Assembly (NCBI GenBank): GCA_003246895.1
Contig: QKCL01000067.1
Coordinates: 17,995-81,994, forward strand
Reading direction: 5' to 3'
Origin: Spirochaetota bacterium
GTDB lineage: Bacteria; Spirochaetota; UBA4802; UBA5550
Length of the DNA: 64,000 nt
Position numbers and translations under genes: made by a program. Below the pieces are notes generated by a model, which worked only from the letters and a program-made list of their open reading frames with translations, was not told the origin of the DNA and did no database searches. Below are positions 3,041 through 30,835 of the stretch, in pieces. Numbering within the stretch: the first letter of the stretch is position 1; every line of letters starts with the position of its first letter.

Positions 3041-4003
3041 ATGGTTAGTTATAAGGATCTTGGTCTGGTTAACTCCAGAGAGCTGTTTAAAAAAGCTGTA
3101 AACGGCGGTTATGCCATTCCGGCATATAACTTTAACAACATGGAACAGCTGCAGGCAATTATTCAGGCCTGTGTGGAGACAAAATCTCCGGTAATCCTGC
3201 AGGTTTCTGCCGGGGCGAGGAAGTATGCAAATCAGACACTTCTCCGGTACATGGCTGAAGGAGCTGTTGCATACGCAAAAGAACTCGGCTTTGAGATTCC
3301 AATTGTGCTCCACCTTGACCATGGGGATTCATTGGACCTGTGCAAAAGCTGTATTGAAACTGGATTCTCATCGGTAATGATAGACGGGTCACACCACTCA
3401 TATGAAGACAATGTGCGCCTGACAAAGGAAGTTGTTGAGTATGCTCATAAATATGATGTTACAGTTGAGGGAGAACTGGGAGTTCTTGCCGGAGTGGAGG
3501 ATGAAGTTTCTGCGGATAAGCATGTTTTTACACAGCCCGATGAGGTGGAGGACTTTGTTAACAGAACCGGAGTGGACAGCCTGGCGATTGCAATCGGCAC
3601 ATCCCATGGTGCCTATAAGTTCAAGCCGGGTTCTGACCCGAAGATCAGACTGGATATACTTTCTGAAATTGAAAAAAGAATTCCAGGATTCCCCATAGTT
3701 CTTCATGGTTCATCATCTGTTCCGCAGGATCTGGTAGCGATTATAAACAGCAATGGAGGAAAACTTGATGATGCAATAGGTATACCCGAAGAACAGCTGA
3801 GACTCGCATCAAAATCCGCAGTGTGCAAGATCAACATTGACTCTGACGGAAGGCTTGCCATGACAGCAGCCGTAAGAAAGGTTCTTGCAGAAAATCCGGG
3901 TGAATTTGACCCAAGAAAATATCTCGGGCCTGCCAGGGATTCACTTAAGGCCCTTTATATGCATAAAAACAGCAATGTGCTAGGGTCAAGCGGGAAGGCC
4001 TGA
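3041..4003 (+). CDS. fba: Class II fructose-1,6-bisphosphate aldolase
   Basis: HLDHG, SVMIDGS, VEGELG, AIGTSHG, VLHGSS, KINID motifs; ATG 3041 after GAGGG. Confidence 0.95.
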   Translation: MVSYKDLGLVNSRELFKKAVNGGYAIPAYNFNNMEQLQAIIQACVETKSPVILQVSAGARKYANQTLLRYMAEGAVAYAKELGFEIPIVLHLDHGDSLDLCKSCIETGFSSVMIDGSHHSYEDNVRLTKEVVEYAHKYDVTVEGELGVLAGVEDEVSADKHVFTQPDEVEDFVNRTGVDSLAIAIGTSHGAYKFKPGSDPKIRLDILSEIEKRIPGFPIVLHGSSSVPQDLVAIINSNGGKLDDAIGIPEEQLRLASKSAVCKINIDSDGRLAMTAAVRKVLAENPGEFDPRKYLGPARDSLKALYMHKNSNVLGSSGKA

Positions 4004-4020
4004 TAGGGCCGGAGGTTAAT

Positions 4021-4479
4021 ATGAAAAGATTACTGCTAATTGCGGCATTGATACTGTCTGTAACAAACCTTTACAGTCAGGATCTAAATAAAAATAACAG
4101 CGACCTGAAACTGGAGATCATAGGTTCTGTAAGTGCATCCAATCTTTATCTGAGCTATCTTACAATAGGTGTAATTGCAGATTCATATACAAAAAAGGTC
4201 TATGATAATCAGAGGACTGTGAGTTTTGTAAAGGCTGCTGTGGTTCAGGCGGGCCTGCAGAAAAAGACACTTGAGAAACTGATTCAGGCCAATGAAGTTT
4301 CAGGAAGTGATCTTGAGGCGGTCAAAAAAATGGTTGATTGTTATTCTCTTCTGGCAGATGAAGGGAATTACTTTATTGATTATATAAATACCAAGAGTAA
4401 AGATTCCCTGAGAAATTATGACGGCAAAAGGAAAGAAGCCTGGGCTCTCATATCTCAGATAATGGGAATTGGAAAATGA
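4021..4479 (+). CDS. Exported helical protein of unknown function
   Basis: GGAGG RBS, signal-peptide-like N-terminus, 152 aa. Confidence 0.7.
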   Translation: MKRLLLIAALILSVTNLYSQDLNKNNSDLKLEIIGSVSASNLYLSYLTIGVIADSYTKKVYDNQRTVSFVKAAVVQAGLQKKTLEKLIQANEVSGSDLEAVKKMVDCYSLLADEGNYFIDYINTKSKDSLRNYDGKRKEAWALISQIMGIGK

Positions 4480-5152
4480 CAGGGATGGCTGGATGTTCGA
4501 TATCAGAGAGTATTATGGGAGCGGCAGAGGGGATGAATATCACCTCGATCATGGAATTTTTGAAATAGACAATGATATAATCGAAGACATCGAACATCTT
4601 CTTGTTCAGCGTGTGGGGTCGCATTATCTTCTTGATGTTTACAAAATAAACAGGCATCAGATCGATATCATATATCCTTCTTTGGGTTATGACGGCCCCC
4701 GGTCGCTTATGCTTACTCCCGACAGGGTAAGGTTTCTCCTTTCACTTTATCCTGAGAAACAGGAGCTTGAAAAAATCAATAAACTGGTTATCAGGCCTAG
4801 GTATGTTGAGTCCGGTGAAATAGAACTGGCATCGCTGTACCATAAAAAAAAGAGGGTACTTGTGCTGTATCTTTCTCATCCTTTCTCCAGTGATTTTAAT
4901 GACAAAAGGCGTGATGACAGTTTTGTGTCTCTTGGACTGGAACATCTCATGAACGACAAGGTAATTGGTGATTCAATAGGTGCCAGCAGAACAGCCGGAG
5001 GGAAGCCTCTTCTCTGGTCGATTATATCATCAATTGATCCTGAAGGGGATGGAGAAATGGACAAGTTTCTGGTGCGCAGGAAAGACGTAGATCCTGCTGT
5101 CTTCCGGGCACTGAGTGATATCTCCTATCATTACGGAAATAACGGATATTAA
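4469..5152 (+). CDS. Hypothetical protein
   Basis: 227-aa ORF overlapping both neighbours in operon-like fashion; no motif recognised. Confidence 0.65.
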   Translation: MENDRDGWMFDIREYYGSGRGDEYHLDHGIFEIDNDIIEDIEHLLVQRVGSHYLLDVYKINRHQIDIIYPSLGYDGPRSLMLTPDRVRFLLSLYPEKQELEKINKLVIRPRYVESGEIELASLYHKKKRVLVLYLSHPFSSDFNDKRRDDSFVSLGLEHLMNDKVIGDSIGASRTAGGKPLLWSIISSIDPEGDGEMDKFLVRRKDVDPAVFRALSDISYHYGNNGY

Positions 5153-5942: not shown

Positions 5943-6944
5943 TTATTCCACGTTGAGCATGCGGTAAATCTTTCTTCCTTCGTATTCGCCGTATTCAGGA
6001 AATTTGTCCGTGAATTCTTCGGGCCTGTACTTCAAAACATTCTCCGTTAAGTTTATTGATCCGGATTTTGCATAGTTGCTGCTGAGATGGTATATTGAAT
6101 TTATTGAATCTGATATGATTTTTCCGGTCTGCCCTCTGTCGTGATATGTTGTGCTTCCTATATGAAATGAAATTTTATATGATAAAAGTATGTCGTAATC
6201 GAATTCCTCGAAACTTGTGATTTTTCTGTTAAGGAGGAGTTCAAAGGCCGTGAATATGGCAGGGCACTTTTTCCCGTCGAAGGGGAACAGAAACAGTGCC
6301 GTCATGTCGTTCCACATCCATATCCTGCCGCCAACCGGGGAGAATGTTTTCTCCAGGAAATCATGAAGCTCCCTTGAAAATATCTCCACACTTTTTCCAA
6401 GAAACCGCTTCTTTATGTCTGACTTGTTGTCAAGTTCAATCATCATGAATGTAAAGATGTAGTCATTTCCGCTTTTTACTGAAGTCCAGTCCGAGCCGGA
6501 GAGTTCATATCCCTGCATTTCTTCAAGGGCCTTTTGGTCAGTGGTTTCTGTTTCTGACTGTGACTCAATAAAAAACTGTGAGCCGTAATCAAAGACATTT
6601 TTTATTCTCTGGGGAGTCATGCAGTCCTTTATGATAGACTTGCCGGCGAAATCACTTGCTCCTTCATGAAAAAAATATGCCGGATCAACGTGGTTTTCAC
6701 GTGACATTATTATCCCGAAAATTCTTTCAGATGATGAGAGAATCCTGATGTTCTTTTTTATTGCAGCATCTGTCATGCCGGTAAAATCAGCATAGACCAG
6801 GTCCTCCCTTTTTATGCATGATATGCCCTTTTTAAGGTTATTTACAGGGGCTATTTCCAGTGTAAATGATTTTGATTTTTCAATTTTACTGAACCATTCC
6901 TGTGCATTTTTATTGTCGCTGAATACAATTATCCTCATTGCCAT
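5943..6944 (-). CDS. Receiver-like N-terminus plus degenerate class III nucleotidyl-cyclase-like domain
   Basis: VYAD and GASDFAGK (REC-like); FMMIELD, GGRIWMWND, ISFHIG, SDSIN (cyclase-like). Confidence 0.55.
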   Translation of the reverse strand: MAMRIIVFSDNKNAQEWFSKIEKSKSFTLEIAPVNNLKKGISCIKREDLVYADFTGMTDAAIKKNIRILSSSERIFGIIMSRENHVDPAYFFHEGASDFAGKSIIKDCMTPQRIKNVFDYGSQFFIESQSETETTDQKALEEMQGYELSGSDWTSVKSGNDYIFTFMMIELDNKSDIKKRFLGKSVEIFSRELHDFLEKTFSPVGGRIWMWNDMTALFLFPFDGKKCPAIFTAFELLLNRKITSFEEFDYDILLSYKISFHIGSTTYHDRGQTGKIISDSINSIYHLSSNYAKSGSINLTENVLKYRPEEFTDKFPEYGEYEGRKIYRMLNVE

Positions 6945-26045: not shown

Positions 26046-26402
26046 GTCAAATCGACACATCATTGCATCAAATCGACGCGCCATTTGGTTAAATTGATGC
26101 TCCGCTGGGTCAAATCGACATTCCCGAGAGTTAAAACGACACTCAAGAGTATTAAATCGATACTCCAGACCATAAAACTTACTCTCCAGAGTATAAAATC
26201 GATGCTCACGACCTTAAAGTTTATGCTCCGGACCATGAATCTTATACTCTCGACCATGAATCTTATGCTCTCGACCATGAAATTTATTCAACGGACCATG
26301 AAGTTTATGCTCCAGACCATGAAATTTATACAACGGACCATGAATCTGATGCTCCCGACCATGAAATTTATACAAAGGACCATAAAGTTTATGCTTACGC
26401 TC
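26046..26402. repeat. Tandem array of 17 degenerate 21-bp units
   Basis: Units such as ATGAATCTTATGCTCTCGACC and ATGAAATTTATTCAACGGACC in exact 21-bp register from 26046 to 26402. Confidence 0.9.
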
Positions 26403-26419
26403 AATGTTTCAACATAGTT

Positions 26420-27960: not shown

Positions 27961-28692
27961 ATGAAAATTGCAGTGAATATTCTATTTAGCGTAATGTTTT
28001 TAGTTTCAAGTATTAGCTATGCGAAAGAAAACTATGTTCAGGATATGAAATACAGAGGTGGCAAGTATACCGGAGAAGTGAAGAATGGCCTGCCGCAGGG
28101 GAGGGGGACATTTATAGATAATGATGGCAAATATGAAGGTGAATTTTATAAAGGCAATTTTCAGGGGAAGGGTAAGATTTTTTTTAAAAATGGAAGCACT
28201 TATGAAGGTGAGTTTAAGAATGATAAAAAAGATGGAAAAGGTGTATTTATATGGATAGAGAATGGTAAATTTTCAATGAAATATATTGGTCAATATAAAA
28301 ATGAATATAGGCATGGCAAAGGTATGTATATAATGGCCAATGGTGTAAAATATGAAGGTGAGTTTAAGAATGGGAAAGAACATGGGAAAGGTATCTATAT
28401 ATGGGAAAATGGGGAGAAATATGAAGGCGAGTATAAGAATGGAAAGAGACATGGTAAAGGAATTTATTATTGGCCATCAGGGAAAAAATATGTTGGTGAA
28501 TATTTTAATGGAGCAAGGCATGGGAATGGTACAGAAATATTGCCTGATGGGAAAAAATTTGTTGGACACTTTGAAAATGGCAGAGCTACCGGTTATGGAA
28601 CCATGTATGATAAAAATGGTAAAATACTTGCCCAGGGTTATTGGAGAAATTATAAATATATAGGGAAAGAAAAACCGAAAGATTTAGAGTAA
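27961..28692 (+). CDS. Exported MORN-repeat protein (candidate immunity protein)
   Basis: Signal peptide; about 7-8 repeats of YEGEFKNGK.HGKG.Y.W.NG. Confidence 0.88.
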   Translation: MKIAVNILFSVMFLVSSISYAKENYVQDMKYRGGKYTGEVKNGLPQGRGTFIDNDGKYEGEFYKGNFQGKGKIFFKNGSTYEGEFKNDKKDGKGVFIWIENGKFSMKYIGQYKNEYRHGKGMYIMANGVKYEGEFKNGKEHGKGIYIWENGEKYEGEYKNGKRHGKGIYYWPSGKKYVGEYFNGARHGNGTEILPDGKKFVGHFENGRATGYGTMYDKNGKILAQGYWRNYKYIGKEKPKDLE

Positions 28693-28737
28693 TTCTATTT
28701 TTTAGGAATTAATTGAAATAAATAAAGGAAACCCTCA

Positions 28738-29160
28738 ATGATTAAGAAAAAAGTAGATATAAAAACAGAAACAAACACAGAGGCACCAACCATACCAGAA
28801 GTGTACAGCAACGCAGTGCTAACAAACATGACACCATACGAGTTTGAAATAACCCTTGGACTTGGAAGCAGCAACTACGAGGGTGTTAAACCTGTGGTTA
28901 ATGTGAGAATGAGCCCTCAGTTTGCCAAAGGCCGACCCATCACTTCCTGTGATGTGGTCGGCATCAACCTCATCGCTTTCTCAGGATGAGATGATGCAAA
29001 GCCGTTACAGGATGTAACAATTGGTTTTGCCTGAGAACGTGAGTTCAGCAACCTGCTTCAACAGAACGTAAAGATGTTTGAAGAGAGGTTCCGGTATATG
29101 AGGAGTAGATGCTTGTTTTACGGAACAAGTTCTTTGAAAACAGTTCAGGATTACACCAAG
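28738..29160 (+). pseudogene. DUF3467-like gene interrupted by a 111-nt insertion
   Basis: PEVYSNA..TPYEFEITL..VNVRMSPQFAK (to 28929) resumes in frame at 29041 as EFSNLLQQNVKMFEERF; the insert carries two in-frame TGA codons. Confidence 0.7.
28930..29040. mobile_element. 111-nt structured insertion (MITE/REP-like, or RNA element)
   Basis: Almost fully paired; see findings. Confidence 0.6.
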
Positions 29161-29251
29161 CCGATTTAACACGAGGTTGAATCGGATGTTGCCGAGGACA
29201 AGCATGGATGCGTCCGCAGGCAGAAATAATATTTTTATGAAACAGTAAGGC

Positions 29252-29321
29252 AAGCCGACCCAGGGCGTCTGACTGGTCGGCTTTTTTGTGCAGCTTTTTG
29301 GGTCGTTGCCAAAAAGCTGCA
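29252..29321 (+). terminator. Terminator-like hairpin with U-tract, then a perfect 13-bp hairpin
   Basis: AAGCCGAC..GTCGGCTTTTTT; TGCAGCTTTTTGG-N7-CCAAAAAGCTGCA. Confidence 0.7.
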
Positions 29322-29423
29322 GAACGAATATAGAAATATTCAGAATTGATATAATTGAATGAAAATCAGAATTTGTCTTAAATAGTTCCTGATAAAAAAG
29401 ATTAAATTAAAATTTAAAAAGTT

Positions 29424-29662
29424 ACATGCAACATCGCGTGAGTGATGGAGCCGATATGCCGAAGGCATACAAGGCGAGAGCGCGACCCGCCGGGAAACAA
29501 ACCAGTTTGAGAGAAACAAGAGAATGAAGGTACTCATTCCAGGTGCGCAGACATTGTGCGCTTAAACAATTGGGAAAGGGACACGCCCAACCTTTACTCA
29601 GGTCTGCAGGTCGTCGATTCTATTTTGCCACTTCCTGTGGCAGAATCGACATCAACCTCATC
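29424..29662. ncRNA. Candidate structured non-coding element of unknown class
   Basis: GC-rich non-coding block with at least six consecutive stems, right after AT-rich DNA. Confidence 0.4.
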
Positions 29663-29666
29663 CTGA

Positions 29667-30347
29667 TATAGCTATGTAGATTTAGAGTCCCAGTGGCTAA
29701 ACAGAAACATAGAAGAGGTCTTTGAAAAGAACGGATTCTTTGAGGAACATACAGAGGTAGAGTTCGACCGGCTTGGCAGGAAGTTCGGAGAGTATTGCCA
29801 GTACTGGATGGCCGGGGAAGCCCTGAAAGCCGGAGCCTTCTACAGTAAGCCCATTTTCCCCAATGGACCGAATATGTTTCAGACAGCGGCCATAGCAGCG
29901 AGTTTATCTGGGCAGGCATGGCTTGCAGAGGCAATAAGTGTAGCAACAAGCGCAATACAGGTAGCAGACGGGACTATGTCGTGGAAGCAGGCAGCATTTC
30001 AGGTTGGAGTAAGTGTGGCAACATCTGCAATAGGTGCAGGAGCAGCCGGCTTTGAGAGCAAGGCCATGCAGAACGCATCAAGTATGATGTTTAGAAAGAT
30101 GCTTGGCAGTGACGAGAAGATGAGCTGGGCCACAGTGGCAAATACAGACCCCATAGGTTAAATGGCCAGTAAGTTTTTCAATGGATTTGTAACACCTGCG
30201 AAGATATCACCGGAAATATATTTTACACTATCGACAGGAACAAGAGATTTCTCACTTTCCTTCGACATGACAGGGGAACCATACTATGCGCCCGCCTTCA
30301 ACATTGAAGCCGACAGGCATGGATGCCTTATGCAAAATTATTCATAA
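29667..30347 (+). pseudogene. Internal fragment of a large Ala/Gly-rich toxin-like protein
   Basis: Frame open from 29667 without a start; TAA at 30159-30161; same frame continues MASKFFNGFVT. Confidence 0.5.
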
Positions 30348-30835
30348 CATCCTGTTATGCTTTTTGCAGGCAGTCATCGTGTCTGCACTGTCGCCGATTT
30401 CAGGATGAAAAAGAGGCGGCTGGCACGGCCGAATCATTTATATTATCCACCTGAAAATTTAATTACTGAATTCCTGACCTGTAATTTTCTGTAAATAGGG
30501 ATATCCTTTGGTTCTGATAAAGGTTATTGTGCCCCTTTTCAGGGCTGGGGGTTCTCCTTAACTGTGTCATTAACTTTATGAAATTCCTACGAAACAAGGT
30601 AAATATCATATATTTACATATGAAATTTGGGGGTACTAGAAGAACTGATAGACTGTGCAGCGTCTGACTCTGAGCTTAAAGATCAAAAAATGCAAAGATA
30701 AAAAATCTCAGCAAACATTAAGTGCAAAAAAAAGTTGATTTTTTGCCCAAATTGCTTTTAATATATGAATGCAAAAGTTATGTGAAATTACATGCCCGAC
30801 TGAGTCCATGTATCCATCACATCTAAGAGGTAATC

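Follow-up and report, generated by a model that had tools for sequence, protein, structure and literature searches.

The GC-rich non-coding block at 29424-29662 of the window, by which we mean the whole 64,000-nt stretch of spirochaete DNA analysed here, probably consists of two unrelated parts that abut one another: a single-copy gene leader (29424-29612) and, at the 3' end of the block, a copy of a mobile repeat, termed c2 (29613-29662). The original prediction had treated these 240 nt as one unknown non-coding RNA or as the end of an element. Our interpretation draws on four observations, namely a family of dispersed repeats, covariation in their hairpin, an insertion site seen both empty and filled, and homology of the leader to a second locus. 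A mobilising enzyme, transcription and any regulatory role are what we infer from them.

Copy c2 belongs to a dispersed family of palindromic repeats, in which the unit measures about 100-111 nt. Two direct repeats of the final hairpin of the block with CATCAACCTCATC lie at 28941-28974 and 29629-29662. These hairpin-plus-tail copies (direct repeat D15) are 688 nt apart, and their stems differ in sequence yet are complementary. A covariance model, R1, built from ten copies outside the window (alignment A4), finds exactly three copies in the 64 kb, all within 800 nt:

28931-28974, + strand: repeat copy c1, hairpin GCCGACC-CATCAC-TTCCT-GTGATG-T-GGTCGGC (28931-28962), then the tail ATCAACCTCATC; R1 match 28921-29001, + strand, 33.6 bits, E 4e-7
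28975-29041, - strand: repeat copy c1inv, tail to tail with c1, reading on its own strand GCAAAACC-AATT-GTTAC-ATCCT-GTAAC-GGCTTTGC, then ATCATCTCATCCTGAGAAAG; R1 match 28930-29040, - strand, 29.8 bits, and blastn matches to the reverse strand of copies in L012, L005, L020 and L039
29613-29662, + strand: repeat copy c2, hairpin GTCGATTC-TATTTT-GCCAC-TTCCT-GTGGC-A-GAATCGAC (29613-29650), then the tail ATCAACCTCATC; R1 match 29604-29728, + strand, 47.7 bits, E 8e-11

With eleven more on Leptospirales-type MAG and metagenome contigs, the copies total 14. Exact-pattern scans located four in two uncultured Leptospirales MAGs (two in L005, one each in L007 and L012) and six on metagenome contigs (L016, L020, L038 and three in L039); chance coding matches, which these scans also returned, were set apart from the true copies. 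R1 matches one copy in L064 with 69.5 bits. A scan of viral contigs for the repeat produced chance coding matches only. The copies have in common a core of 65-106 nt that is 81-99% identical, and their flanks are unrelated. Read from 5' to 3', the unit has first a long hairpin, whose outer stem varies, whose internal loop is U-rich and whose inner stem and loop, CAC-UUCCU-GUG, are conserved; next come a conserved single-stranded tail, CAUCAACCUCAUCC(UGAGAACG), and then either a second hairpin or a partner copy in inverted orientation. Hardly any variation is seen in the loop (UUCCU or AUCCU), the pairs that close it and the tail, and both UCCU loops are present in most copies; the second, AUCCU, is replaced by AUCUU in three of ten Leptospirales copies, so that the second GGA is lost on the opposite strand.

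The terminal hairpin had been described as conserved, and it is. Among 13 copies the main hairpin shows covariation at 9 of its 13 base pairs. In this structural alignment, which was fitted to R1 and therefore favours the structure by construction, 94% of cells pair and ten pairs have changed on both sides, a count that none of 500 shuffles reaches and that slid controls approach with three at most. The raw sequences by themselves also show outer stems that are unrelated between copies yet complementary: GCAGGCTC/GAGCCTGC, GCCGGCC/GGCCGGC, GTCGATTC/GAATCGAC, GCCGACC/GGTCGGC and CAAACGC/GCGTTTG. In each of the ten Leptospirales copies the strand that carries UCCU folds better than its complement, and on that strand G-U pairs exceed A-C pairs by 5 to 2 in the hairpin and by 14 to 4 in the tail stem. 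Such an asymmetry would fit an RNA as well as a single-stranded DNA substrate that is strand-specific. The family appears to be a previously uncatalogued one of Spirochaetota-type genomes and is absent from Rfam.

How did the repeat reach its present places? The doublet formed by c1 and c1inv gives a direct view, as it interrupts a small gene of the DUF3467 family:

28738-28930, + strand: 5' part of the DUF3467-family gene (codons 1-64, up to ...MSPQFAK), recognised by Pfam DUF3467 and by homologues
28931-29041, no strand assigned: insertion of the c1 and c1inv doublet, 111 nt, from the empty site in L062 against the filled window
29042-29095, + strand: 3' part of the DUF3467 gene, displaced and decaying, in the original frame; (E)FSNLLQQNVKMFEERF aligns to L062 EFSNLLQQNVKMFEERFGEIP...
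29254-29287, + strand: native terminator-like hairpin of the DUF3467 gene, GCCGACC-13 nt-GGTCGGC plus TTTTTT

The ORF at 28738-28989 has 83 codons and is DUF3467-like only as far as residue 64; the Pfam match is partial, covering profile positions 17-70 of 92. In family searches with 23 and 69 homologues, all matches end at query residue 64-67, and the homologues extend 21-32 residues beyond that point (...MSPQFAKEFxxxLxxNVxxYEExFG...). The doublet supplies the split ORF with a foreign 19-residue tail and a stop codon, and the 111-nt insert folds at -47.2 kcal/mol (z -6.2). The closest homologue, DUF3467 protein P0025 of locus L062, is 92% identical. L062 is uninterrupted at the site (...TTTGCAAAG|GAGTTCAGC...), where the window holds 111 extra nucleotides; its sequence around the site reads ...CAGTTTGCAAAG|GAGTTCAGCAATCTTTTACAGCAGAATGTAAAGATGTTCGAAG..., and the window resumes ...AGTTCAGCAACCTGCTTCAACAGAACGTAAAGATGTTTGAAG... 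in the original frame. Because the site is uninterrupted in this close relative, the doublet is, on the comparison of the two loci, an insertion of DNA. Filled and empty site reveal no target duplication beyond one ambiguous nucleotide.

Homology to L062 2681-2948 extends over the window sequence from 29042 to about 29290. Given this homology and the 111-nt insert, that sequence represents the displaced gene end, the 3' UTR and the native terminator. L062 has a hairpin at the position matching 29254-29287, and the terminator stem in the window is identical to the outer stem of c1. An intervening sequence of about 750 nt, with DUF3467 resuming at 29684, was considered and rejected: that frame belongs to a separate gene (homologue P0001), and the true resumption lies at 29041-29042.

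Two more DUF3467 genes are interrupted by copies of the repeat. In L063 the interruption falls at the same position and consists of a decayed copy with a deletion, and in L064 a full consensus-type copy with the outer stem CAAACGC/GCGTTTG is present. Three other DUF3467 loci, L065-L067, are without the repeat and without the Gly/Ala-rich gene that lies downstream in the window; one DUF3467 homologue carries the name Spirochaetota. The assembly graph of the source metagenome is fragmented over 28991-29260, read depth rises about three-fold at 29171-29292, and alternative contigs, one of which departs at 29266, lead into other repeat copies. At a second locus of the same metagenome a c2-type stem, GTCGATTC...GAATCGAC, is joined to a c1inv-like half and the DUF3467 3' part. 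A clean pair of empty and filled sites thus documents insertion of the doublet, and the repeat recurrently interrupts one small gene family. The suggestion that the block might hold the end of an element was apt to the extent that its terminal hairpin belongs to a repeat that inserts into DNA.

We propose that the repeat is a small, non-autonomous palindromic element, REPIN- or MITE-like, that would spread as DNA and insert without target duplication. It might be moved in trans by an enzyme that reads the single-stranded hairpin and tail, for example a Y1/HUH transposase of the RAYT/IS200 type. With REPs and REPINs it shares short palindromes, mostly intergenic, in both orientations and in many copies; inverted doublets that fold into long hairpins; the lack of target duplication; and a hairpin structure kept by compensatory change while the stem sequence varies, here over 14 copies in unrelated contexts. 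In the window c1 and c1inv stand tail to tail, and in L039 copies stand head to head with weak inverted partners. Orientation relative to neighbouring genes is mixed (sense in L007, L020, L039 and the window; antisense in L005, L016 and L012), and the neighbours include toxin-antitoxin, restriction-modification and ordinary metabolic genes. Unlike REPs and REPINs, the repeat is longer, its monomer measuring about 50 nt and its doublet 100-111 nt, and one copy lies inside a coding sequence. REPs typically flank their cognate RAYT (Y1 transposase) gene, whereas no RAYT or other transposase gene is found next to the copies or among the window ORFs scanned, those upstream of 40241. The tetranucleotide CGTC stands at the hairpin foot in c2 only, at the 5' foot (GGTCGTCGATTC); c1 and the Leptospirales consensus carry neither the GTAG nor the CGTC tag. 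The two REP super-families are defined by a GTAG or CGTC tag at the palindrome end (PMC3733652).

The ends of IS200/IS605 elements and PATEs offer a second parallel, with a strand-specific hairpin that has a bulged base, a conserved single-stranded tail and insertion without target duplication. The end hairpins of these insertion sequences are direct and flank the element, whereas the 111-nt unit has inverted hairpins; moreover, the scanned ORFs include no TnpA or TnpB, and the copies show no conserved target tetranucleotide. Bacterial MITEs such as Correia, ERIC, RUP and BOX are likewise non-coding insertions of about 100 nt with inverted repeats. MITEs fold as RNA when co-transcribed and can alter the expression of adjacent genes. 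Classical MITEs differ in having terminal inverted repeats that match a parent IS and short target duplications, and neither feature is seen in the spirochaete-type repeat: the filled site is longer than the empty one by exactly 111 nt, and the ambiguity is 1 nt at most. On these likenesses the repeat would be a newly recognised family of an already known kind of element. Two points weigh against a purely selfish palindrome. The unpaired loop and tail are conserved beyond what such an element needs, and the folding bias of the UCCU strand with its excess of G-U pairs also fits a function as RNA. We rank the mobile palindromic repeat first and an RNA module second, and the two readings are not exclusive.

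The case for an RNA starts from a likeness to Bacillaceae-1 (RF01690), the most interesting lead to come from the repeat family. Across the 64-kb window Rfam gives zero matches at gathering score, and a permissive scan of 28600-30400 gives only sub-threshold matches to this model. They score 27.8 bits at 29602-29669 and 19.2 bits at 28978-29040 (- strand), with 27.4 bits for L039, all below the gathering score of 35 bits. The earlier statement that the block matches no known class therefore stands at the gathering score and has to be amended for the final hairpin, which carries the 27.8-bit match. In both the repeat and Bacillaceae-1 an outer stem of 7-8 bp is followed by an asymmetric internal loop and a 5-bp inner stem closed by C-G with an xUCCU loop, and after a 3-nt linker comes a second short hairpin with an AUCCU loop. 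In contrast to Bacillaceae-1, the second hairpin of the Spirochaetota-type repeat has only 3-4 bp, and the repeat is found in Spirochaetota/Leptospirales-type metagenome bins, not in Bacillaceae. It also differs in its direct evidence of DNA insertion and in its inverted doublets, neither of which, to our knowledge, has been reported for Bacillaceae-1. The Bacillaceae-1 RNA motif is of unknown function (Weinberg et al. 2010, PMC2864571) and is counted among the abundant multi-copy families (PMC9029176).

It is a tentative but real possibility that the unit serves mainly as an RNA, a functional module distantly related to Bacillaceae-1, and that its dispersal is secondary. Read on the UCCU strand, loop (CUUCCUG) and tail (AACCUCAUCCU) look like the anti-Shine-Dalgarno end of 16S rRNA and might cover ribosome-binding sites or purine tracts; pairing with CCUCAUCC is open to the GGAGAGG tracts that lie on either side in the consensus copies. 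On the opposite strand, the loops CAGGAAG and CAGGAUG would be putative CsrA-type binding sites, and c1inv and the inverted copies of L039 read (G)UACAGGAUGUA(C), which we take to be close to the SELEX consensus for CsrA, RUACARGGAUGU. Sub-threshold RF01690 matches in three independent copies with the same layout speak for such a module, as do the nearly invariant loop and tail and the strand-asymmetric folding. Gardner and Eldai suggested CsrA as a ligand for the reverse complement of Bacillaceae-1, the strand being uncertain (PMC4333381), and Leptospira has CsrA (PMC8668096). Against a primary role as RNA stand the mixed orientation relative to neighbouring genes, the insertion that destroyed a coding sequence, the loss of the second GGA in three of ten Leptospirales copies (AUCUU) and scores that stay under the Rfam threshold.

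We turn from the mobile repeat to the other part of the block. Judged by its homology, 29424-29612 probably serves as 5' leader to the Gly/Ala-rich protein gene downstream. The features of this region are:

29347-29355, + strand: candidate extended -10 promoter consensus, TGATATAAT, read from the sequence in the AT-rich stretch
29426-29527, + strand: candidate small ORF of 33 codons, MQHRVSDGADMPKAYKARARPAGKQTSLRETRE, with an ungapped codon alignment to L050 MVMRICNGDKAREEFKPRARPWDGKQ
29541-29563, + strand: conserved leader hairpin AGGUGCGCA-GACAU-UGUGCGCUU, -11.1 kcal/mol, z -2.8
29570-29590, + strand: hairpin TTGGG-11 nt-CCCAA, weakly supported, GCCCAA being common to L050
29676-30161 (frame 29673-30161), + strand: gene for the Gly/Ala-rich protein, 66% identical to P0001

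The sole homologue found of the Gly/Ala-rich protein is P0001, of 169 aa, encoded on L050-L057, whose upstream regions are identical to one another; a profile search for further homologues returned P0001 again and nothing else. PHROGs and NCBIfam gave nothing informative on the proteins of the island. The GTG start of P0001 aligns with GTA at 29676-29678, the first canonical start in the window is the ATG at 29808, and no ribosome-binding site is found for the gene in the window, where c2 occupies that place. L050 is without a repeat copy between leader and start, and homology to it resumes at 29663, directly past c2. L050, at 66% protein identity, has diverged too far to serve as a clean empty site for c2 or to fix its left edge. 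Upstream, L050 is organised like the window: TATAAT stands in an AT-rich stretch, which gives way to a purine-rich, U-poor, GC-rich non-coding region. Local alignment pairs 29470-29590 with L050 1092-1216, about 120 nt with many indels, at a score of 40 against 23.0 +/- 3.5 for shuffles, none of 300 reaching it (z about 4.8). Read depth over the leader is single-copy. A two-hexamer promoter scan did not flag TGATATAAT at 29347-29355.

Within the leader, the hairpin at 29541-29563 has a counterpart at the aligned place in L050, AGGGACGCGG-GGCA-CCGCGUCCUU. The pairs A-U, G-U and G-C are identical, three inner pairs have changed on both sides (U-G to G-C, G-C to A-U, A-U to G-C) and one further pair on one side; this comparison, like the leader homology as a whole, is between two sequences, the window and L050. 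A compensatory change in the GGCG/CGCC stem (29473/29488) was also considered and dropped, the stems in the two loci being at non-aligned positions. The original prediction saw no credible plus-strand ORF in the block, which is unsafe: the first 63 nt from the ATG at 29426 align ungapped to an ATG-initiated ORF of 26 codons in L050. Both peptides have R-[VI]-x-[DN]-G, [YF]-K-x-RARP and GKQ, differences fall 9/7/15 by codon position, and five codons are synonymous against 0-1 in the other frames. No Shine-Dalgarno sequence precedes the 33-codon ORF, and its conservation between two sequences is a weak hint that it may be coding. The stems at 29432 and 29455 lie within it. The leader does not look like a CsrA sponge, GGA/AGGA being present four times in 29424-29609 against 4.2 expected.

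We regard it as unlikely that the leader has no function of its own and is spacer DNA in drift or what a decayed gene has left behind, its stems a by-product of GC-rich composition. The modest folding scores on both strands, the restriction of the L050 alignment to about 120 nt with many indels, and the apparently damaged state of the downstream gene, without start codon or ribosome-binding site, would agree with that. So would L062, which keeps the order of DUF3467 gene and Gly/Ala-rich gene with an unrelated spacer; its intergenic region, searched as a third leader homologue, has no similarity above shuffles. Arguing the other way are the significance of the L050 alignment (0/300 shuffles), the pairing of 29541-29563 kept through three double changes, and a position and composition kept though the genomes are far apart (66% protein identity). 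In the reading that we favour, the leader is probably transcribed from the AT-rich stretch just upstream; it carries the conserved hairpin and perhaps a short upstream ORF, which might act in cis on the downstream gene, for example by attenuation, stability or processing.

That all of 29424-29662 forms one novel structured RNA of about 240 nt, an sRNA or riboswitch-like leader with a single fold, is very improbable. The listed stems are all found where they had been placed, and the block does begin abruptly, directly after about 85 nt of AT-rich DNA. In favour of one RNA, the whole 239 nt fold on the + strand at -78.6 kcal/mol (z -3.5, 0/200 shuffles as good; - strand z -2.7), the purine-rich, U-poor composition is consistent with + strand transcription, the AT-rich stretch upstream is promoter-like, and L050 provides partial homology. 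Once the final hairpin is removed, however, 29424-29609 has a z of only -2.5 on the + strand (3/200 shuffles) and -1.9 on the - strand. Because the final hairpin by itself folds at -22.2 kcal/mol with z -5.5, against z -2.5 for the remaining 186 nt, the fold signal is concentrated at the 3' end of the block. The prediction of better folding than shuffled controls is thus borne out for the whole block and becomes a modest gain without the repeat. Comparative support falls on two stems, GGTGCGCA/TGTGCGC (29541-29563) and the final hairpin; the other stems show no covariation, and those numbered 1, 2 and 5, the first two at 29432 and 29455, are not kept in L050. Rfam gives no matches. The final hairpin is a multi-copy repeat found without the rest in 13 other places, and the rest is found without the hairpin in L050. 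This separate distribution of leader and repeat largely refutes a single RNA of about 240 nt.

Weakest of all, and extremely improbable, is the idea that the direct hairpins 28931-28974 and 29613-29662 are the ends of a non-autonomous IS200/IS605-type element of about 730 nt, with the inner block an omega-type guide RNA, an IS110 bridge RNA or a group II intron remnant: the direct hairpin-and-tail repeats 688 nt apart, the lack of target duplication and the bulged base and conserved 3' tail, which resemble IS608 ends, fit it, yet it is refuted by the L062 empty site, which limits the insertion to 111 nt (28931-29041), and 29042-29290 is native gene end and terminator. Nor are TnpA, TnpB, IscB, IS110, reverse-transcriptase or other transposase genes found nearby among the ORFs scanned; the flanking ORFs have no TnpB/IscB Pfam domains, and Rfam gives no match to IS605-orfB, HEARO or group I/II intron models with E up to 10; the omega, bridge and intron domain I candidates raised at the outset find no support. 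Group I/II intron remnants also fail on boundaries, which, read from the sequence, do not fit GUGYG...AY. A template/variable repeat pair of a DGR (no similarity upstream of the hairpins, no reverse transcriptase nearby), a hammerhead or other self-cleaving ribozyme (cores misfit by eye, no Rfam match) and an integron attC site (CATCAAC/GTTGATG misfit the R'' RYYYAAC and R' GTTRRRY cores by eye on both consensus strands) were likewise set aside.

What are the implications of a mobile repeat lying against a gene leader? A false call is averted, as stems that resembled one new RNA resolve into a leader and a repeat. In the window one doublet has split the DUF3467 gene, and c2 separates the leader from the following coding sequence, at the very place where that gene lacks its ribosome-binding site and start codon. 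The leader hairpin and the possible small ORF are of local interest. For an orphan motif the likeness offers a lead: Bacillaceae-1 may be mobile, a palindromic element in place of a small RNA or in addition to one. As a long shot, we speculate that the Bacillaceae-1-type double-UCCU hairpin may mark widespread mobile single-strand hairpin elements, served by an HUH-type enzyme, that deliver a translation-rewiring RNA module in the form of an anti-Shine-Dalgarno or CsrA-site pair. If that were true, c2 at the downstream ribosome-binding site would be a regulatory insertion and not damage.

The outer stem of c1 (28931-28962), the window copy of the dispersed palindromic hairpin repeat that, with its inverted partner, interrupts the DUF3467 gene, is formed by GCCGACCCA...TGGTCGGC, and this stem is the same as that of the gene's own terminator hairpin (29254-29281), with identity over 9 and 8 bases. 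The terminator hairpin lies 320 nt downstream of c1, and the difference between the two structures is confined to their interior. An alternative metagenome contig departs from the terminator at 29266 and continues into another copy of the repeat. Taken together, the shared stem and the contig that leaves at 29266 suggest that the hairpin repeat interacts with, or copies, pre-existing hairpins.

In two homologues of the window's DUF3467 protein, P0008 and P0012, similarity stops directly after MSPQ and the proteins end in unrelated basic tails; judged from sequence, these may represent further interruptions of DUF3467 family genes at the same spot. The contig of the second interrupted DUF3467 gene (L063) also carries a tmRNA gene on the minus strand (5977-6330; Rfam 180.6 bits). 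In the window, the DUF3467 gene is immediately preceded by a gene for a 243-residue protein with seven MORN repeats (27961-28692; Pfam E 5e-45), and one or two unannotated genes are found immediately upstream at other DUF3467 loci too. Further upstream, a 21-nt unit, direct-repeat family D1, occurs head to tail at least 11 times over 26100-26395 within an ORF (26085-26417), so that the encoded protein contains a 7-residue repeat; its sole Pfam match is weak and of coiled-coil type.

Outside the window, on the metagenome contig L039, three copies of the hairpin repeat within 3.4 kb have between them a PIN toxin–antitoxin pair and a 310-residue protein with an FGE-sulfatase fold (1087-2019; Pfam E 3e-22), a layout that is cassette-like; no integrase or reverse transcriptase is present on this contig. 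On L007, from a Leptospirales MAG, a segment of ~250 nt holding the repeat copy is flanked by a 41-nt direct repeat (2220-2260 and 2469-2509; 93% identical), and tandem repeats of ~178-nt period form an array at 3873-4506, 1.5 kb away.

The Gly/Ala-rich protein gene downstream of c2, another window copy of the repeat, has GTA in place of the GTG start of its homologue P0001, and no in-frame ATG, GTG or TTG occurs across 45 codons (29676-29808). These start-less codons are nevertheless conserved at the protein level, and the gene could be a recent pseudogene, have an unusual start or contain a one-base sequencing error. The same P0001 gene is found on eight short contigs (L050-L057) from eight samples; a divergent upstream ORF on L050 (292-819) has no match in Pfam. 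Several of the contigs start at one of two common points, 292 or 370 nt upstream of the gene, and two of the eight diverge ~45-60 nt past the stop codon, which suggests that the genome in question has more than one copy of the P0001 gene together with part of the leader.
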